Shown here one piece after another: positions 41,852 through 49,892 of a DNA stretch of 62,526 nt (position 1 is the stretch's first letter; every line of letters starts with the position of its first letter). A program made the position numbers and the translations under genes. The notes below the pieces were generated by a model. The model ran no database searches. It saw only the letters and a list, made by a program, of their open reading frames with translations, and was not told the origin of the DNA. Origin of the DNA: an uncultured archaeon (lineage in GTDB: Archaea; Thermoplasmatota; E2; DHVEG-1); contig CABMCU010000058.1 of NCBI GenBank assembly GCA_902384685.1, forward strand, positions 1-62,526, read 5' to 3'.

Positions 41852-43048
41852 TTATCGTCCAAACGAATGACGAGATGAGCCTCGAAACTGTTGATGGTCT
41901 CGTGGTTCAAACCGTCGCATAAACGGAACTTTCCGAAAATCAGGGATATCTGCCCGTTCTATCCGAAAATCATCGTTGCTTTGCACCCGCCTGAAGTTGT
42001 CATGGTCGCGCTCGGTAAGAAGGGTGATTGCTGCGCCATTTGCTCCGGCACGTGCAGTTCTGCCTATCCGATGAACATATTCAGTTGGCGTCTTTGGTAC
42101 GTCGTAGTTGTAGATGTGAGTGACGTTTTTGATATCAAGACCCCGGGCTGCTACATCTGTTGCTACCAGAACTTTGGTTTTTTGTGCTTTTAACGCGTCC
42201 AGTGAACTTGTTCGTTTTTGTTGTCTCATTCCTCCATGGATTGCGGAGACACGGATTCCTTGACGCGCAAGGTTCTTTGAGACGGCATCAGATTCTCTTC
42301 GTGTCCCACAGAACACAATAGATAACCCATCGGTATTGCTGTTCAGTAAATGAACAAGCAGAGAAAACTTCTGATTCTGCTCATAAATATCGTAATAGAT
42401 CTGCTTTAATTTACTGTGATCGACATAGGATTGAGTCTTTATGATCACTGGATTTTTCAGATGTCTTCTCGCGAGACGATGGACATCCTCAGATATTGTT
42501 GCACTAAACATCAGTAGCTGTCGTTGCTGAGGAATGTAGCGAACGATATCTTCGACATCATCGATAAAACCCATTTCAAACATTTTATCGGTTTCATCCA
42601 GCACAAGGATCCTAATACCACCTAAATCAATAGTTCTCCTGCGAAGATGATCAAGCATCCTGCCAGGAGTTCCGATAACGATTTCAGATGTACGAACACC
42701 GCGTATCTGTGGTTCAATGCTGACACCACCGTAGACACTCGTGGTCCGTATCCCCAGGTTTTTTCCAAAATCCCTAAAAACATCAGTGACCTGGATGCAT
42801 AGTTCTCTTGTAGGAGTAAGAACAAGCGCCTGCAGTCCCCTACCAGGTACTATTTTGTTGAGGATAGGTAGACAGAACGCAAGCGTTTTTCCTGAGCCGG
42901 TCTCTGCTTGGCCAACCACATCTTTTCCCTGGACAATTTCCGGTATGCATTTTTCCTGGATAAGCGTCAATTCCTTGAATTCTTGGTCTTGTAGTTTAAC
43001 TAAGAGCTTTGGATGTATGTTAAGTTGTTCACATTTCATTATTTTCAC
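41852..43048 (-). CDS. DEAD-box RNA helicase (motif II reads DETD)
   Basis: Q motif/TLIQ, AETGSGKT, PTRELC, LDETD, SAT, HRIGRTAR. GTG 43048 or ATG 43039 as start. Confidence 0.9.
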   Translation of the reverse strand: MKIMKCEQLNIHPKLLVKLQDQEFKELTLIQEKCIPEIVQGKDVVGQAETGSGKTLAFCLPILNKIVPGRGLQALVLTPTRELCIQVTDVFRDFGKNLGIRTTSVYGGVSIEPQIRGVRTSEIVIGTPGRMLDHLRRRTIDLGGIRILVLDETDKMFEMGFIDDVEDIVRYIPQQRQLLMFSATISEDVHRLARRHLKNPVIIKTQSYVDHSKLKQIYYDIYEQNQKFSLLVHLLNSNTDGLSIVFCGTRRESDAVSKNLARQGIRVSAIHGGMRQQKRTSSLDALKAQKTKVLVATDVAARGLDIKNVTHIYNYDVPKTPTEYVHRIGRTARAGANGAAITLLTERDHDNFRRVQSNDDFRIERADIPDFRKVPFMRRFEPRDHQQFRGSSRHSFGR

Positions 43049-43116
43049 TTTCTTACTAAATCACGATTTTGTTTCTCGTTTCTTCTTATAACTAATTGTT
43101 TTCTCTTTGTTTCAAA

Positions 43117-43135
43117 TTTTTTGAAAAAAAGTATT
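43117..43135 (-). terminator. T7 tract (sense strand) between csp and the helicase gene; possible partial terminator
   Basis: The sense strand reads ATACTTTTTTTCAAAAAA. Archaeal terminators are oligo-T tracts. Confidence 0.3.
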
Positions 43136-43163: not shown

Positions 43164-43355
43164 TTACGCCTTCTTTACGTTTTTTGCTTGTGGTCCTCGA
43201 TCTGATGTTTCGACTTCAAATTCAACTGCATCTCCTTCGTTGAAGGATGTGTCCATGGGAAGAGCGGTCCGATGAACGAAGACTTCTTTACCATCGTCAC
43301 ATTGGATGAATCCGTATCCCTTTCTTGTATTATACCATTTTATGTTTCCTTTCAT
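43164..43355 (-). CDS. csp: Cold-shock domain protein
   Basis: MKGNIKWYNTRKGYGFI (RNP1) ... VFVH (RNP2). 63 aa from ATG 43355; the track ORF starts at GTG 43364. Confidence 0.9.
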   Translation of the reverse strand: MKGNIKWYNTRKGYGFIQCDDGKEVFVHRTALPMDTSFNEGDAVEFEVETSDRGPQAKNVKKA

Positions 43356-43395
43356 ATTATTCACGTTTTCCTCAGAGTATATCTGAATTATTTTA

Positions 43396-43507
43396 AAAGA
43401 ACAAAAACAAAAAAATTTCGATCATTCGAATTTACGAAACTGTGAAACTCTTATTTCTATTCCTTTTGACGCGATATAGCTTTCCTACCTTTATATAGTT
43501 TTTCACG
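43396..43507 (-). promoter_or_regulatory. Promoter (BRE/TATA GAAAAACTATATAAAGG) plus conserved 5' leader, copy A (csp)
   Basis: Near-identical to 44594..44706, including a 34-nt core (43434-43467) identical to its partner at roughly 30 positions. Confidence 0.7.
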
Positions 43508-43551
43508 GAGAAGATTGCAGGTTATTTTAGCACTACGGGATCTAAAAAAAT

Positions 43552-44487
43552 TTACATCACGATATGAATATCTAATTTTTGGGCGAGTTCTTTGTATCGA
43601 TTTCGTATCGTGACCTCAGTGACCCCAGCGATCTCTGCAACCTCACGTTGTGTCCTACGTTCACCACATAGTACTGAGGAGATGTATAAGGATGCCGCAG
43701 CAAGTCCTGTTGGACCTCTTCCGCTTGTGAGTTCCTGATTTGCTGCATGTCCTAATATTTCCAATGTTTTATTGTGAACGTTATTACTGAGTTTTAATTC
43801 GCTGCAGAATCGTGAGATATAATCTTTCGGTGCAGTCGGCATCAATTTTAATTCGAGTTCACGGGAGACATATCGAAAGTTTCTCCCAATCTCTTTTCGT
43901 GGCATCTGTGCAATCGAGCTAATTTCATCCAATGTGCGAGGTACATGGCATTGTCTGCATGCTGCATATATAGAAGCGGCAGTAACACCTTGAATACTTC
44001 GTCCTCGTACTAAATTTTTCAATGCTGCTTTTCGATAAATCATTGCTGCGGTTTCTCGTACGGTTCTTGGAAGACCCATACCTGAGGCAAGTCTGTCGAT
44101 TCCTGAGAGAGCAAGCGCTAGATTCCGCTCGGTTGCATCGCTGATGCGAACGCGTCGTTGCCATTTACGTAGTCGATATAATTGTGCTCGATTTTTTGTT
44201 GGAATAGATTTCCCGTATGCATCTCGGTTTGTCCAGCCTATCGTAGTACTCAATCCTTTATCATGGATGGTATATGTCATTGGAGATCCAGTTCGAGATC
44301 GTTTCTCACGTTGTTCGTTGTCAAATGCACGCCATTCTGGACCATGATCAATGATATTTTCATCGACAACAAGTCCACAACCAGAACACACTAATTCTGC
44401 ACGAGAATAATCCTTACTTAAATGTCCACTCCCACATTCAGGGCAAGAGATAATTTCTTCTATTTGTTGCTTATTTTTTTTAACCAA
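43552..44487 (-). CDS. tfb: Transcription initiation factor TFB
   Basis: Zn ribbon CPECGS..CSGCG, B-reader/linker, two cyclin-fold repeats. TTG is the only available start after an in-frame TGA. GGGGG lies ~10 nt upstream. Confidence 0.92.
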
Positions 44488-44593
44488 GTGAATTCAACCC
44501 CCACACACACATTTTTTTCCAGATTTTTACCATTTGAATAGTGCCATTCAGGGATTTTTACTTTTTCAATTTTTTAATATTGGCACTGGTACG

Positions 44594-44706
44594 AAAGAAC
44601 AAAAATAAAAAATCTCAAAATTTCGATTCAACGAAAATGTGAAACTCTTATCTCCATTCCTTTTATATATAGATATGGGTCTCTGGCCTTTATATTATTT
44701 TGCACG
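44594..44706 (-). promoter_or_regulatory. Promoter (BRE/TATA CAAAATAATATAAAGG) plus conserved 5' leader, copy B (tfb)
   Basis: Paralogous to 43396..43507. Followed toward tfb by a tfb-specific hairpin AGTGCCA-N34-TGGCACT (44540-44587). Confidence 0.7.
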
Positions 44707-44714
44707 TGATTACT

Positions 44715-45012
44715 GGGTGTAGGCCGTAAGCCTCTTTCTGTTTTAACGGTATTCGTCTAATGCGCCCTACCTTCGAGCAGTCTGAATAACTGATCCCGAT
44801 GTTTGGGCTTGCTCCAGGAGCAGATTGGCCGTTTCATCAAATCCCAAGGAGATCTCATCACCGAGTGAATCATCGCATAATCCAAGGGCTGTGTCGTTTC
44901 TGTTCCTCTGCTAAGACTCTCGCCTTAGTCGTTTGCACGACGTCCTGATTCAGAGTGAGAGAGGACTTTCCTCAGCAACCAAAAGGTCACCGTCAACCGT
45001 CCACCTACGCCC
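44715..45012 (-). ncRNA. rnpB: RNase P RNA (archaeal type)
   Basis: The minus strand contains CR-I GAGGAAAGTCC and CR-V ACAGAAAGAGGCTTA (the two P4 strands). P1 pairing GGGCGTAGG/CCTACACCC. GC-rich relative to its flanks. TATA (AAGTTTATAA) at 45040-45049, ~30 nt upstream. Confidence 0.85.
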
Positions 45013-48437: not shown

Positions 48438-48620
48438 GACACACCTCCTATTGTACATGATATCCAATTTTGTGATTTAAATCTTCTTCTTGTTACTCCC
48501 TTATTTTTTTTATTTTATCAAAATAAATCAACAGAAGAATGTTTGATAAAAAAGATTATGAATAATGAATTTATGTCTACCACACACCAGACACATAAAT
48601 CTAAGAGAAGGTCATAGAAT

Positions 48621-48692
48621 GCGGATGTGATCTAGTGGTTATGATTGAGGCCCTCCAAGCCTCTTGCCCGGGTTCGAATCCCGGCGTCCGCA
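48621..48692 (+). tRNA. tRNA-Gly (anticodon UCC by hand folding)
   Basis: Acceptor GCGGATG/CGTCCGC, anticodon stem GAGGC/GCCTC with loop CCTCCAA, T-arm CCCGGGTTCGAATCCCGG. No encoded CCA. TATA-like ACATAAATC ~25 nt upstream. Confidence 0.8.
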
Positions 48693-48715
48693 TCTCTGTA
48701 TTCCATCAATTGTCT

Positions 48716-48833
48716 GCAGGGGTAGCCAAGCATGGCCAACGGCGCAGGACTTAAGATCAAAACACAAGAAAGGTTCGTGTGATGAGACATCCTGTCTCGC
48801 AGGAGTCCGAGGGTTCAAATCCCTTCCCCTGCA
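48716..48833 (+). tRNA. tRNA-Leu (anticodon UAA) with a 33-nt intron at the canonical 37/38 position
   Basis: Acceptor GCAGGGG/CCCCTGC, loop CTTAAG then intron 48756-48788, resuming A-TCCTG. Long variable arm, T-arm GAGGGTTCAAATCCCTTC. Confidence 0.85.
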
Positions 48834-48997: not shown

Positions 48998-49726
48998 ATG
49001 CGCTCCCGGTACGTACGAAAACCAGCATTGCGTCGCGTTGTAACCCTTCTTGATTATACGAAATGCAGGGTTCAACGTCTTCTCAGACACAGCTGGACAG
49101 ACCTTTCAGCTTGGACACTTGTCCTTACCAACATGATTACCATATCAGCTGCATTCCTCGAGCATTGGTCGTTTTCTACGATCATTTGGGTGTACTGGTG
49201 TCAAATCCTTATCATCGGGGTCTTTGCATTCTTGCGTACCATCGCGCTTACAGACCTCTCCTTAACCGGGGTCAATCGGATTCGTCTTCGATTCACTCTA
49301 AAGGGGAAGCTGCGAGCAGGGGCTTTTTTCCTCGCCCACTTCACGGTCATCCAGCTGTGTCTGACCTTCGTGCTTTGGCTGGTTATTGGGCCGGTAACCA
49401 GCGTAAACGGAACTATTTTGCTGTTCACTTCCCTGATGTTCTTCACCAATCATCTGTTTTCCTACATTTATAATAAAAAGAGGGAACGGGTGGTCCACAA
49501 GAATCTCGGGTTCGCTGTTCTTCGACCGTACCTCAGGATGCTACCTCTCTTTGTCGCATTTCTGTTCGCTGGTATCATCATTGCCTCGTTGTATCTTAGC
49601 CGTGAGGCACAGCTGGAACCGGTCGGATACCTCGTGCTCTTCGTGATGAAGACCTGCGCGGATGTCATCGCGCATAACCTGGAACACTCCCCACCTACGC
49701 AATGGAAAATTAGAAAATTTTCTTAG
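48998..49726 (+). CDS. Polytopic membrane protein, hypothetical (compositionally foreign)
   Basis: 242 aa with ~6 hydrophobic helices. Noticeably higher GC than neighbouring genes. Confidence 0.6.
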   Translation: MRSRYVRKPALRRVVTLLDYTKCRVQRLLRHSWTDLSAWTLVLTNMITISAAFLEHWSFSTIIWVYWCQILIIGVFAFLRTIALTDLSLTGVNRIRLRFTLKGKLRAGAFFLAHFTVIQLCLTFVLWLVIGPVTSVNGTILLFTSLMFFTNHLFSYIYNKKRERVVHKNLGFAVLRPYLRMLPLFVAFLFAGIIIASLYLSREAQLEPVGYLVLFVMKTCADVIAHNLEHSPPTQWKIRKFS

Positions 49727-49796: not shown

Positions 49797-49820
49797 GGGT
49801 TCAAATCCCTTCCCCTGCAC
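49797..49820 (+). repeat. Direct repeat copy 2 (orphan tRNA-Leu 3' end)
   Basis: Exact 24-nt match to 48811-48834. No upstream tRNA body. Confidence 0.9.
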
Positions 49821-49892
49821 ATTTATCTTTTATTAGTGGAATATATTAAATTTTTATCAGAAAAAATATGTTAAAATTTATTGTTTTAATTT

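Follow-up and report, generated by a model that had tools for sequence, protein, structure and literature searches.

Why should a cold-shock protein gene (csp) and a gene for transcription factor B (tfb) begin with almost the same DNA? In the window, by which we mean the whole stretch of 62,526 nt from an uncultured archaeon, the minus strand carries two paralogous blocks of ~112 nt, one 5′ of csp and one 5′ of tfb, with no further copy elsewhere. A sequence-only reading had described these blocks and had proposed that they form a shared cis-regulatory module, possibly an RNA thermosensor, that links a general transcription factor to the cold-shock response. All of its statements on the sequence itself were re-read and confirmed; its interpretation is revised below in several respects.

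Two leader copies and the genes behind them

Both blocks share one layout: a BRE/TATA promoter is followed, from the predicted +1, by a hairpin of ~75 nt that we call the rod. On the csp side, the promoter CGTGAAAAACTATATAAAGG occupies 43488–43507 (minus strand, as are all features of this locus), with TATATAAA read at 43490–43497, and we infer a transcription start at 43467, 30 nt 3′ of the first T of the TATA box. The rod hairpin (43395–43467) comprises a 5′ purine strand (43448–43467), an apical part with helices P2/P3 (43416–43447) and a U-rich 3′ strand (43395–43415) of the form U7 G U5 G UUCUUUU; our covariance model matches 43393–43470 with 88.5 bits, and the predicted minimum free energy (MFE) is −20.7 kcal/mol (z = −3.5). 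On the tfb side, the promoter CGTGCAAAATAATATAAAGG (44687–44706, with AATATAAA at 44689–44696) starts 9 nt past the 3′ end of the RNase P RNA gene, and transcription is predicted to start at 44664–44666. The corresponding rod (44594–44664) is again composed of a 5′ purine strand (44645–44664), an apical part (44613–44644) and a U-rich strand (44594–44612; U6 A U5 G UUCUUU), and is matched at 44591–44667 with 90.2 bits (MFE −21.7 kcal/mol, z = −3.8). The BRE/TATA elements and the nearly identical 34-nt core (43434–43467 and 44631–44664) were thus located in both copies where they had been reported; at up to three mismatches the core has these two matches only within the window, where 100 shuffles give an expectation of 0, and the copies make up repeat family D4 (64 nt, 80% identity). 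Likewise, a TTTCG...CGAAA stem and a T-rich tract ending in TTTTTGTTCTTT are present in both copies as described, but this stem is merely the tip of the long hairpin, in which the 5′ purine block is paired with the T-rich tract.

The csp gene (43164–43355) encodes a cold-shock domain protein of 63 amino acids (Pfam CSD, E = 1.6e-22, 79.6 bits) with its ATG at 43355. An in-frame GTG upstream at 43364 was rejected as its start: spacing and frame relative to the ATG vary in relatives, and the GUGA fits a Shine–Dalgarno sequence of the GGUGA type, of which the GTG is, judging from the sequence, more likely a part. Between the rod and the weak Shine–Dalgarno/ATG, the MFE fold contains a small hairpin, UUCAGA-uauac-UCUGAG (43371–43387), with one covarying pair (C-G in 14, U-A in 10 and a mismatch in 1 of 25 distinct relatives); in other clades different hairpins occupy this place, and some clades have none. 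Past the csp gene, a terminator-like run of seven Ts (43124–43130) is conserved within ACTTTTTTTCAAAAAAATTTGAAAC, and the open reading frame of a DEAD-box RNA helicase (41852–43048; Pfam DEAD 174.5 bits, Helicase_C 112.3 bits) follows 115 nt after csp, as had been noted, with the csp stop at 43164 and the frame starting at 43048. The true helicase start is likely the ATG at 43039, preceded by the presumed Shine–Dalgarno sequence AAAGTGAAA, and in the spacer after csp, whose conservation was compared, the helicase gene has a TATA-like box of its own. The tfb gene (43552–44487) starts with TTG and encodes a TFB paralog of the csp-linked type with 311 amino acids (Pfam Zn_Ribbon_TF 67.1 bits, TFIIB 158.9 bits). 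All Pfam architectures of csp, tfb and the helicase gene lie above the gathering score. For the tfb 5′ UTR, estimated earlier at ~200 nt, we predict a length of ~177 nt, from 44664 to the TTG at 44487.

Conservation, strand and fold of the rod

The rod consensus consists of a purine-rich 5′ strand, AAAAGGAAUAGARAUAAGAG, and a U-rich 3′ strand of the form U6-7 R U5 G UUCUUU, which together form a helix rich in A-U and G-U pairs; within the latter strand, which also carries oligo-U runs, the motif GUUCUUU(U) is almost invariant. Seven diverse members are predicted to adopt the same rod fold, with MFEs of −18 to −23 kcal/mol and z-scores of −2.9 to −4.3. Standard pairs account for 94.4% of the pair cells in a structure-blind MAFFT alignment and for 95.3% in the model alignment of 87 distinct sequences, and fall to 50–74% if the partners are slid by 1–3 columns as a control, although the purine and U strands pair fairly well in other registers too (72–74% at slide −1). 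Changes on both sides occur at 10 pairs, none of 500 shuffles reaches any of five measures, and RNAalifold, unaided, recovered 20 of the 26 rod pairs; on a wide, gappy alignment with flanks it returned no structure, while trimmed and model-based alignments gave one. Covariation in the leader alignments is modest, as the sequences are for the most part close relatives: a small number of cells (33 of 2257) carry two-sided, compensatory changes, and the variation is mainly A-U to G-U or U-G to U-A.

The strand asymmetry of the rod is pronounced. The sense strand is predicted to be more stable than the antisense strand in 86 of 86 sequences (average MFE −20.3 versus −7.4 kcal/mol), and covariance-model scores on the antisense strand are 40–55 bits lower, which rules out a DNA palindrome or cruciform. 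The same observations bear on the idea that the block acts as DNA, namely as an operator or promoter-proximal regulator site on the initially transcribed region, perhaps for the linked TFB: The strong primary conservation from +1 to +25, directly 3′ of the TATA box, would suit such a site, but the pairing makes use of many G-U pairs on the sense strand only, compensatory changes preserve the helices, and the conservation extends over 75 nt and includes the distal U strand, so that we consider this highly improbable. Equally, the rod is not the terminator of the upstream gene, since the upstream neighbors vary among lineages and each rod is preceded, at a fixed distance, by a TATA box of its own: in all lineages compared, the BRE/TATA sits 26–32 nt before the start of the hairpin, a constant spacing (one of the extractions of this spacing covered plus-strand rows only). 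A leader peptide or upstream open reading frame was also discarded, as all frames of the rod are interrupted by stop codons and none offers a start, and the short frames of the tfb 5′ UTR (MALFKW* and another) are unconserved; inspection for a C/D-box sRNA found no conserved C/D boxes, only single CTGA motifs in one lineage. In sum, a position set by one gene family, pairing kept with compensatory changes and strand specificity, that is, the generic marks of a conserved structured cis-regulatory RNA, were all found, and the alignments support the view that the block is a real RNA element of the sense strand, under selection and beginning at the predicted transcription start. The primary conservation of the 5′ strand exceeds what the structure needs, and another partner is therefore possible; as for the conserved C of UUCUUU, its pairing with a G of the stem offers an explanation as well.

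What, then, of the thermosensor? If the leader were an RNA thermometer or thermoswitch, temperature itself would alter its fold and hence translation or stability, as it does in bacterial csp 5′ UTRs (E. coli cspA; S. aureus cspB/cspC, PMC8034633). An A-U/G-U-rich helix, an alternative fold with pairing between the U strand and the A-rich start region, and mutually exclusive hairpins around an anti-Shine–Dalgarno CUCC in some clades would be in keeping with such a switch. Folding predicted at several temperatures nevertheless speaks against it: the same MFE fold is obtained throughout 4 to 65 °C, with a mean unpaired probability of 0.01–0.11 for the 5′ strand, which stays below 5% up to 55 °C and reaches 11% at 65 °C. 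This predicted stability from 4 to 65 °C makes a melting thermometer unlikely. Moreover, the Shine–Dalgarno sequence and start codon lie outside the rod, 35–40 nt downstream, the alternative fold is weaker by ~10 kcal/mol, and the tfb copy retains its rod in spite of a decayed start region downstream. Neither a melting helix containing the ribosome-binding site nor a switching fold, as in fourU/ROSE or cspA-type thermometers, was found in the predictions between 4 and 65 °C. We thus regard temperature sensing by the fold itself, which the sequence-only reading had suggested, as quite unlikely.

Distribution of the leader and origin of its tfb copy

Across more than 180 related loci, the element occurs solely upstream of csp genes or, in the clade of the window, upstream of tfb, and both leader copies are conserved in eight species-level relatives. 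In 656 kb of related loci, our covariance model R1 scores 50–94 bits at sites upstream of csp or tfb only, with no forward-strand match above 30 bits away from these genes, and it also detects the leader before csp genes in unrelated neighborhoods, including those without a tfb or deaD neighbor. A DNA pattern scan of metagenomes returned 87 matches, 76 of which lie ahead of csp, with its ATG near +107, or of tfb, near +167, the other 11 being due to chance. A generic intergenic repeat or mobile element is thereby ruled out, given two copies in 62.5 kb and 76 real metagenome matches that all precede csp or tfb; the search for the block beside unrelated genes, which would have undermined a specific role, instead showed its restriction to csp and, in this clade, tfb. 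Some csp genes lack the rod or have a degenerate one (loci L167–L170), as do without it some deaD-adjacent csp paralogs, and the element is therefore not universal.

This distribution also weighs on the notion of a stand-alone small RNA, according to which the promoter would yield an RNA of ~75–80 nt that terminates at the U tract and works in trans, with the downstream gene served by read-through or another promoter. Such an RNA would account for the element's own promoter and terminator-like end as well as for the conservation of the tfb copy independently of the sequence downstream, and a short RNA associated with a transcription start is known at Halobacterium cspA1 (PMC8303175). However, the element has the same orientation in every lineage, the distance from rod end to csp ATG is nearly fixed at 35–40 nt, every occurrence in the 656 kb of related loci is at csp or tfb, and no other convincing csp promoter lies between rod and ATG; a trans-acting product is in our estimation very unlikely.

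The element does not belong to a known RNA family. With Rfam 15, only RNase P RNA and tRNA reach the gathering score in the window and six related loci, and a search of positions 43300–44720 at E-values up to 10 gave chance-level matches only (best 19.8 bits against a threshold of 46), so that the known families, including the cspA thermoregulator, were dismissed for want of a model match at or near the gathering score. A literature search on archaeal csp leaders or a csp–tfb link yielded nothing specific. The earlier remark that no such module had been described in archaea thus agrees with Rfam and the searched literature: the leader RNA is previously undescribed and precedes csp genes in many uncultured Thermoplasmata archaea.

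How did a csp leader come to precede tfb? The answer lies in the stretch between rod and tfb (44488–44593), which an alignment with locus L083 identifies as the remnant of a decaying second csp gene, csp2. In L083 the gene order is leader-csp2-tfb-leader-csp-deaD with csp2 intact; the tfb 5′ UTR of the window aligns with csp2 over its first ~45 nt, beyond which ~200 nt are deleted. The remnant comprises the hairpin region formerly on the Shine–Dalgarno side, a relic of codons 1 to ~13 (~44505–44547) and the deletion scar, and its last 16 nt (44488–44503) are the conserved ribosome-binding region of tfb. It also contains the AGTGCCA-N34-TGGCACT hairpin (44540–44587), to which attention had been drawn: its letters are present, AGTGCCA at 44581–44587 and TGGCACT at 44540–44546, but it is unconserved even in the closest relatives. 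It lies in neutrally evolving DNA and was rejected as a functional element. Among 30 loci of the clade, identity is 89% for the tfb-side rod, 64% for the adjoining relic and 61% for four-fold sites of tfb; by these values the relic appears to evolve about neutrally, and the sequence comparison shows the csp2-derived rod before tfb to be still under selection. The comparison of gene orders showed that the ancestral order is leader-csp-tfb-deaD, and that the clade of the window duplicated leader-csp and then lost most of the upstream csp2; consequently, the promoter and rod of csp2 now precede tfb. Read from these alignments, the tfb leader copy is the leftover leader of the deleted paralog.

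The element is therefore fundamentally a csp leader. The proposal of a module shared by tfb and the cold-shock response survives in one part and fails in another: tfb, csp and the DEAD-box gene are linked in many lineages, but the leader was not recruited independently by two genes. Synteny and a tree show that the csp-tfb-deaD clustering is widespread across many Thermoplasmata lineages and involves a distinct TFB paralog. Several csp–tfb spacers contain T runs and TATA-like boxes of their own, and tfb in other lineages may therefore escape control by the leader.

A possible sensor of cold-shock protein, and known counterparts

Taken together, we find it somewhat probable that the leader is a conserved cis-acting csp element of Thermoplasmata-type archaea, with the history of duplication and csp2 loss given above and a mechanism that senses the cold-shock protein (CSP). 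Here, the rod would sense either free CSP or the capacity for unwinding RNA: CSP, favoring U-rich single strands of the GUCUUUU/UUCUUUU/UUUGUUU kind, would bind the U-rich strand and compete with rod formation, and whether the rod is closed or open would set transcript output. Possible outputs are the fraction of polymerases that stop at the oligo-U tract, the degree of 5′-end protection and hence mRNA stability, or the accessibility of the A-rich start region for translation. In the cold, cellular RNA would become more structured and titrate CSP, which would shift the balance and alter csp output, and in the window's lineage the csp-linked TFB paralog would change along with csp. As to the direction of the effect, we favor negative feedback by CSP.

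Several features of the U strand (UUUUUGUUCUUUU) are consistent with this mechanism. Runs of at least five Ts occur in 85 of 86 rods (T7, T5 and T4 in the csp copy, T6 and T5 in the tfb copy), and both leaders thus contain the archaeal oligo-T signal of at least five Ts on the non-template strand, a putative site of termination. Within genes, the sense strand has four times fewer runs of at least six Ts than the antisense strand, and many stop codons, among them those of tfb and csp, are directly followed by such a run. Of 86 rods, 80 contain the motif TTCTTT; for Bacillus CspB, GTCTTTG/T is the preferred sequence and TTCTTTT a tightly bound one (PMC1904285), the published preferences being those of bacterial proteins and the comparison one of motif resemblance. 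With the rod ~10 kcal/mol more stable than its best alternative fold, a formed rod may resist a small single-strand binder, and the competition would therefore have to be co-transcriptional.

The same oligo-U runs, which match the terminator-like signals after genes of this genome, could also serve without CSP: rod and oligo-U could be a constitutive or kinetic device, either a promoter-proximal terminator that caps csp and tfb output or a hairpin against 5′-to-3′ decay. A rod at the predicted 5′ end, predicted to be very stable and operating in two different downstream contexts, fits such a role, which nonetheless leaves the restriction to csp across many neighborhoods unexplained, as well as the primary conservation of both strands, given that a plain stabilizer or terminator could take any sequence; we deem it doubtful, though deserving of attention. 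Returning to CSP sensing, its most far-reaching form, in which the rod is an RNA-chaperone-sensing transcription attenuator that directly controls a dedicated TFB paralog in this lineage, strikes us as unlikely. If true, the leader would sense RNA misfolding caused by cold and thereby switch a general transcription factor along with the cold-shock transcription program that depends on it, an archaeal counterpart to the regulation of an alternative sigma factor.

To our knowledge, few archaeal cis-regulatory RNAs have been described, regulated premature termination in archaea has hardly been shown and post-initiation control barely documented, and archaeal cold-shock domain proteins are almost unstudied. 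Many lineages possess this short and well-defined leader, and it offers a natural experiment with the same rod before two different genes. It raises the questions of whether archaeal CSP feeds back on its own mRNA as in bacteria, whether an RNA hairpin with oligo-U can attenuate archaeal RNA polymerase, and whether stress-specific initiation is the task of the csp-linked TFB paralog. Annotation of the motif in Thermoplasmatota genomes could rely on the covariance model.

Among known systems, the rod resembles intrinsic terminators of the A-tract/hairpin/U-tract type in that a hairpin runs into a U tract with which the upstream A-rich strand can pair, and attenuators in that its position in the leader allows premature termination. 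In contrast to bacterial intrinsic terminators, its stem is rich in A-U and G-U rather than G+C, and a scan with the bacterial terminator consensus (at least three G-C pairs) found no terminator-like site at either leader. Archaeal termination needs no hairpin; oligo-T termination signals of archaeal RNA polymerase were reportedly described by Santangelo and Reeve, and CSPs are said to act as antiterminators in bacteria (Bae et al. 2000). Stress-related TFB paralogs are exemplified by the heat-shock-induced TFB2 of Pyrococcus and the haloarchaeal Tfb families. As there, several TFB paralogs exist per genome and one is tied to a stress module, but here the tie consists in genomic linkage to csp and the DEAD-box gene and in an RNA leader of the csp type. 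Long 5′ UTRs on archaeal cold-related genes, with a proposed post-transcriptional action, are a further parallel: The deaD gene of Methanococcoides burtonii has one, and so do cold-responsive genes of Methanolobus psychrophilus (PMC5378194). Those leaders, compared by description rather than sequence, belong to other genes and are not known to have a defined, conserved and covarying structured motif.

Closer in gene content are the bacterial csp leaders. The E. coli cspA 5′ UTR combines a cold box with a thermosensor (Giuliodori et al. 2010; Yamanaka et al. 1999, as summarized in PMC5378194); it is likewise a long structured leader of a major cold-shock domain gene, and its conserved promoter-proximal element, implicated in autoregulation and mRNA stability, may be likened to the archaeal leader. 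Unlike cspA, the archaeal leader has no Rfam match even at E-values up to 10, consists of a single 5′-terminal rod and shows no predicted temperature-dependent refolding. In S. aureus, the paralogous 5′ UTRs of cspB and cspC are RNA thermoswitches, and CspA acts on a UUUGUUU of the cspB 5′ UTR, which would block folding of the long hairpin (PMC8034633); autoregulation of CspA requires a U-rich motif in its own 5′ UTR (Caballero et al. 2018, as reported in PMC8034633). The archaeal leader differs by its host, its TATA/BRE promoter and the lack of sequence similarity, by a rod that starts at the predicted +1, excludes the Shine–Dalgarno sequence and is predicted to be temperature-insensitive, by oligo-U runs of the kind that signal termination to archaeal polymerase, and by the one copy that precedes a transcription factor gene. 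Common to both systems are paralogous leaders on cold-shock genes, a long hairpin with U-rich motifs and the UUUGUUU that recurs in the archaeal U strand, and the prevention of the long hairpin by a CSP on the U-rich strand, with feedback on csp, is what we propose by analogy for the archaeon.

Leader copies in the window and in relatives

A leader shared by two minus-strand genes, csp (a 63-aa cold-shock domain gene) and tfb (a transcription factor B, TFB, paralog), had been described in a sequence-only reading: the minus strand between 42300 and 46000 indeed holds the two BRE/TATA boxes with the 34-nt core, the TTTCG/CGAAA stems and T-rich tracts of both copies, and the claimed 115-nt spacer that separates csp from the DEAD-box helicase gene deaD downstream. 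The observation is confirmed, and the interpretation, a leader coupling tfb to cold shock and possibly acting as an RNA thermosensor, is partly supported. A repeat finder groups the copies in the window (43395–43467 before csp, 44594–44664 before tfb) into one 64-nt family with 80% identity, and the core pattern matches the 62.5-kb window exactly twice at up to three mismatches, versus none in 100 shuffles. Pfam assigns a CSD domain, Zn-ribbon plus TFIIB domains, and DEAD/Helicase_C domains to the three proteins; the helicase likely starts at the ATG at 43039, not at the GTG at 43048. The csp–deaD spacer (window 43105–43135, minus strand, and relatives) contains ACTTTTTTTCAAAAAAATTTGAAAC, which is conserved and whose T7/A7 run resembles a bidirectional terminator, and a TATA-like box lies ~45 nt ahead of the helicase start, so that the helicase is probably also transcribed on its own.

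Uncultured Thermoplasmata encode hundreds of relatives of the TFB protein. For comparison, 80 tfb loci (L001–L080; scan with one genome per species) and 68 metagenome contigs (L081–L148) were gathered, the latter with 87 matches to the leader DNA pattern (GAATRRARATAARRNNTTC, 30–50 nt, TTRTTCTTT); judged from record titles only, the habitats are lake, wetland, peat and marine sediments. Both copies are kept in all eight closest species, arranged as in the window; in more distant lineages csp lies immediately upstream of tfb, the DEAD-box gene is usually next, and a block homologue precedes csp. The pattern is followed by csp (ATG ~107 nt from pattern start) or tfb (~167 nt) in 76 of the 87 metagenome matches; the other 11, located within unrelated ORFs or lacking every other feature, were discarded as chance. 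R1, a covariance model of the leader hairpin (the rod), reaches 50–94 bits over 656 kb of tfb loci only at sites upstream of csp or tfb, the best unrelated forward-strand match there being 29.7 bits within a coding region. The rod also precedes csp homologues in other neighbourhoods, including a MAG labelled Theionarchaea, at 35–40 nt from the csp ATG, and csp genes with neither a tfb nor a helicase neighbour carry it too; in a few csp genes it is degenerate or miniature, and some csp paralogs have none. Because the rod stands before csp across neighbourhoods and R1 finds it only at csp/tfb sites, the block is a csp leader. This csp-specific distribution rules out a tfb element as well as the generic repeat upstream of unrelated genes that had been named as the adverse outcome: among the loci scanned, copies occur only at csp/tfb sites. 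At L009:3852–3921, a shorter, divergent leader (GAAAGGAAGAAAC...GTTTTTTTTCTTTG, 25 bits) immediately precedes a tfb of 85% identity that has no csp nearby, apparently an independent or earlier instance of retention before tfb.

Architecture and pairing of the rod

From the start of the TATA box to the first conserved purine, the distance is 26–32 nt in every lineage (in one comparison, for plus-strand loci only). Given this constant spacing, the predicted transcription start is at the conserved block or no more than a few nucleotides away, namely at 43467 and at 44664–44666, from where the leader RNA is predicted to form one long hairpin: P1 pairs AAAAGGAAUAGARAUAAGAG with U6-7 R U5 G UUCUUU, P2 pairs UUUC with GAAA or UUUCA with UGAGA, and the apical stem P3 pairs UUCG with CGAA. 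The same architecture was obtained for seven of seven members spanning the family (−18.5 to −22.8 kcal/mol, z = −2.9 to −4.3). The rod of the csp copy is followed by a 6-bp hairpin, a weak split Shine–Dalgarno sequence and the ATG. Between rod and ATG of L146, L153, L163, L085 and L011, a hairpin adjoining the Shine–Dalgarno sequence contains a CUCC with two possible partners, one inside the hairpin itself and the other the Shine–Dalgarno GGAGG; these mutually exclusive folds could toggle translation in those clades. Such a hairpin is absent in the window's clade.

Standard pairs make up 94.4% in a structure-blind MAFFT alignment of 80 distinct sequences (51–74% when the 3′ partners are slid by 1–3 columns) and 95.3% in a model-based alignment of 87 distinct sequences including new lineages (50–72% when slid), pair counts being limited as evidence by the tolerance of the purine strand facing the U strand to register shifts. 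The model-based alignment contains two-sided changes at ten pairs (33 cells), in a data set of mostly close relatives where most changes are one-sided, and none of 500 shuffles matches the observed value on any of five measures. Compensatory changes turn C-G into U-A in P3 (11–15 sequences) and U-A into C-G in P2, while U-G becomes U-A or C-G at two P1 positions where the U strand has its G or A. RNAalifold, unaided, recovered 20 of 26 pairs, and the small hairpin downstream of the rod covaries as well (C-G in 14, U-A in 10, a mismatch in 1). Since many G-U pairs are needed, pairing is limited to the sense RNA: the mean MFE is −20.3 kcal/mol for sense versus −7.4 for antisense, sense folds are the more stable ones in all 86 sequences, and R1 scores 40–55 bits lower on the antisense strand. 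The analysis shows a sense-strand RNA hairpin that begins at the predicted +1, is csp-specific and under selection, and has a 3′ strand of oligo-U runs and GUUCUUU.

As regards the thermosensor, the predicted structure does not change between 4 and 65 °C, and the rod does not include the ribosome-binding site, which makes a simple melting thermometer unlikely. Prediction with the 5′ strand blocked instead joins the U strand to the A-rich csp start region, ~10 kcal/mol more weakly than in the rod; this is expected of any U-rich strand in an A-rich context, and a role for the alternative fold is only an idea. No family of Rfam 15 matches the leader, even at E up to 10, and neither Rfam nor the searched literature yielded a description of the motif in archaea, in agreement with the sequence-only reading, which knew of none.

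Origin of the tfb copy and its surroundings

Contig L083, whose TFB is 93% identical to that of the window, has the order leader–csp2–tfb–leader–csp–deaD, where csp2 is a second csp paralog and the leader ahead of it belongs to the tfb type. Its alignment to the tfb leaders of L001, L089 and the window is colinear through the rod and the region of the small hairpin, and remains so for the first ~45 nt of csp2 (ATGAAAGGAACTATCAAATGGTATAAT...); after this csp2 relic follows a ~200-nt deletion up to the conserved GGGGTTGAATTCAYTTG, which bears the tfb start. The window's tfb 5′ UTR therefore consists of a leader that belonged to a lost csp paralog and of a pseudogene scar. Among 30 distinct loci of the window's clade, pairwise identity averages 89% for the tfb-side rod, 84% for its promoter, 87.5% for the tfb coding sequence, 64% for the scar and 61% for four-fold degenerate sites of tfb; by these values, the rod before tfb is under purifying selection and the scar drifts, including the AGTGCCA/TGGCACT pair, which is present as claimed but does not hold as an element of the leader. 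In L001 (3935–3960) and several relatives, decay of the csp2 start (ATG to ATA) made CTATAAAAGG, ~62 nt upstream of tfb, which resembles the family TATA box and is possibly a new internal promoter born from the pseudogene.

Genomes of the group carry at least two TFB paralogs, with pairs that each come from a single MAG in L001/L012, L011/L055, L064/L050, L071/L054 and L015/L029. In a neighbour-joining tree, a rough distance tree of the L001–L080 loci and not a tested phylogeny, csp-linked (or deaD-linked) TFBs occupy the upper part, apart from a clade of ~60 TFBs without csp neighbour. The cluster recurs rearranged (csp-tfb-deaD, csp-deaD, deaD...csp-tfb), and several csp–tfb spacers contain T runs and TATA-like boxes, so that co-transcription of csp and tfb cannot be assumed. 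Synteny supports a tie of this TFB paralog to the cold-shock module, and in the window's clade tfb inherited the complete csp promoter and rod; to this extent the proposed coupling has support, but the block, being a csp leader, is not an element of tfb. Directly upstream of tfb (window 44488–44503, minus strand) lies a 16-nt motif, (A/G)GGTTTGAWTTMATTG, with the TTG start codon at its end; it is kept in the csp–tfb spacers of L011, L064, L071, L076, L085 and others, whose TFBs share only 72–80% identity with that of the window, and perhaps serves this paralog as a conserved signal for translation initiation.

The 3′ end of an archaeal RNase P RNA gene (window 44715–45012, minus strand; Rfam RF00373, 172 bits) lies 9 nt upstream of the tfb-side BRE. 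The gene itself lacks a run of five or more T; the first one downstream is the U tract of the rod (44594–44612), and RNase P RNA synthesis may therefore continue into the leader; L083, which retains csp2, has no RNase P gene at the corresponding place. Elsewhere on the plus strand, tRNA annotation gave tRNA-Gly(TCC) (48620–48694) and a second, presumably intron-containing tRNA of 118 nt (48716–48833; found by Rfam, not by ARAGORN). A 31-nt, 90%-identical copy of the latter's 3′ end, ~1 kb downstream at 49797–49827 (plus strand) and without a tRNA, could either have arisen by integration, as an att-like duplication, or represent a tRNA fragment. A 1.5-kb search gave a sub-threshold C/D-box sRNA match (sR1, 22.5 bits versus a threshold of 45, E = 0.0036) at 49531–49585 on the minus strand.

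A possible cold-shock protein-sensing leader

In this genome, the sense strand of genes has runs of at least six T four times less often than the antisense strand does, and the runs are located 2–27 nt past many stop codons, the tfb and csp stops among them. As such runs are avoided within genes and placed after stops, the leader tract looks like a termination signal in a 5′ UTR. Bacterial cold-shock proteins (CSPs) prefer pyrimidine strands, with the consensus GTCTTTG/T and TTCTTTT as a tight binder (PMC1904285). Autoregulation of Staphylococcus aureus CspA requires a U-rich motif of its own 5′ UTR, and the protein also acts on UUUGUUU of the paralogous cspB/cspC leaders, where it would block folding of a long hairpin (PMC8034633). 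UUUGUUU occurs in the archaeal U strand, as does UUCUUU(U), which 80 of 86 members have. The terminator-like tract, the CSP-type motifs and the S. aureus parallel together favour a CSP-sensing leader: CSP would bind the nascent or free U strand in competition with rod formation, and the balance of closed and open rod would set premature termination at the U runs, 5′-end stability or access to the start region, with negative feedback by CSP as a guess at the direction. We consider it quite probable that the block is a regulatory csp leader RNA acting in cis; for the explanation as a whole, CSP sensing included, our analysis tips only slightly in favour, and any one specific output among termination, 5′ stability and start access is doubtful.

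Bacteria offer well-known examples of cold-shock genes with structured, paralogous leaders that respond to CSP. For methanogens, long 5′ UTRs of cold genes have been noted (PMC5378194). The archaeal rod differs from bacterial csp leaders in sequence and architecture, in lying at the extreme 5′ end of its transcript, as judged from the predicted start, in its oligo-U content, and in its link to a TFB gene.
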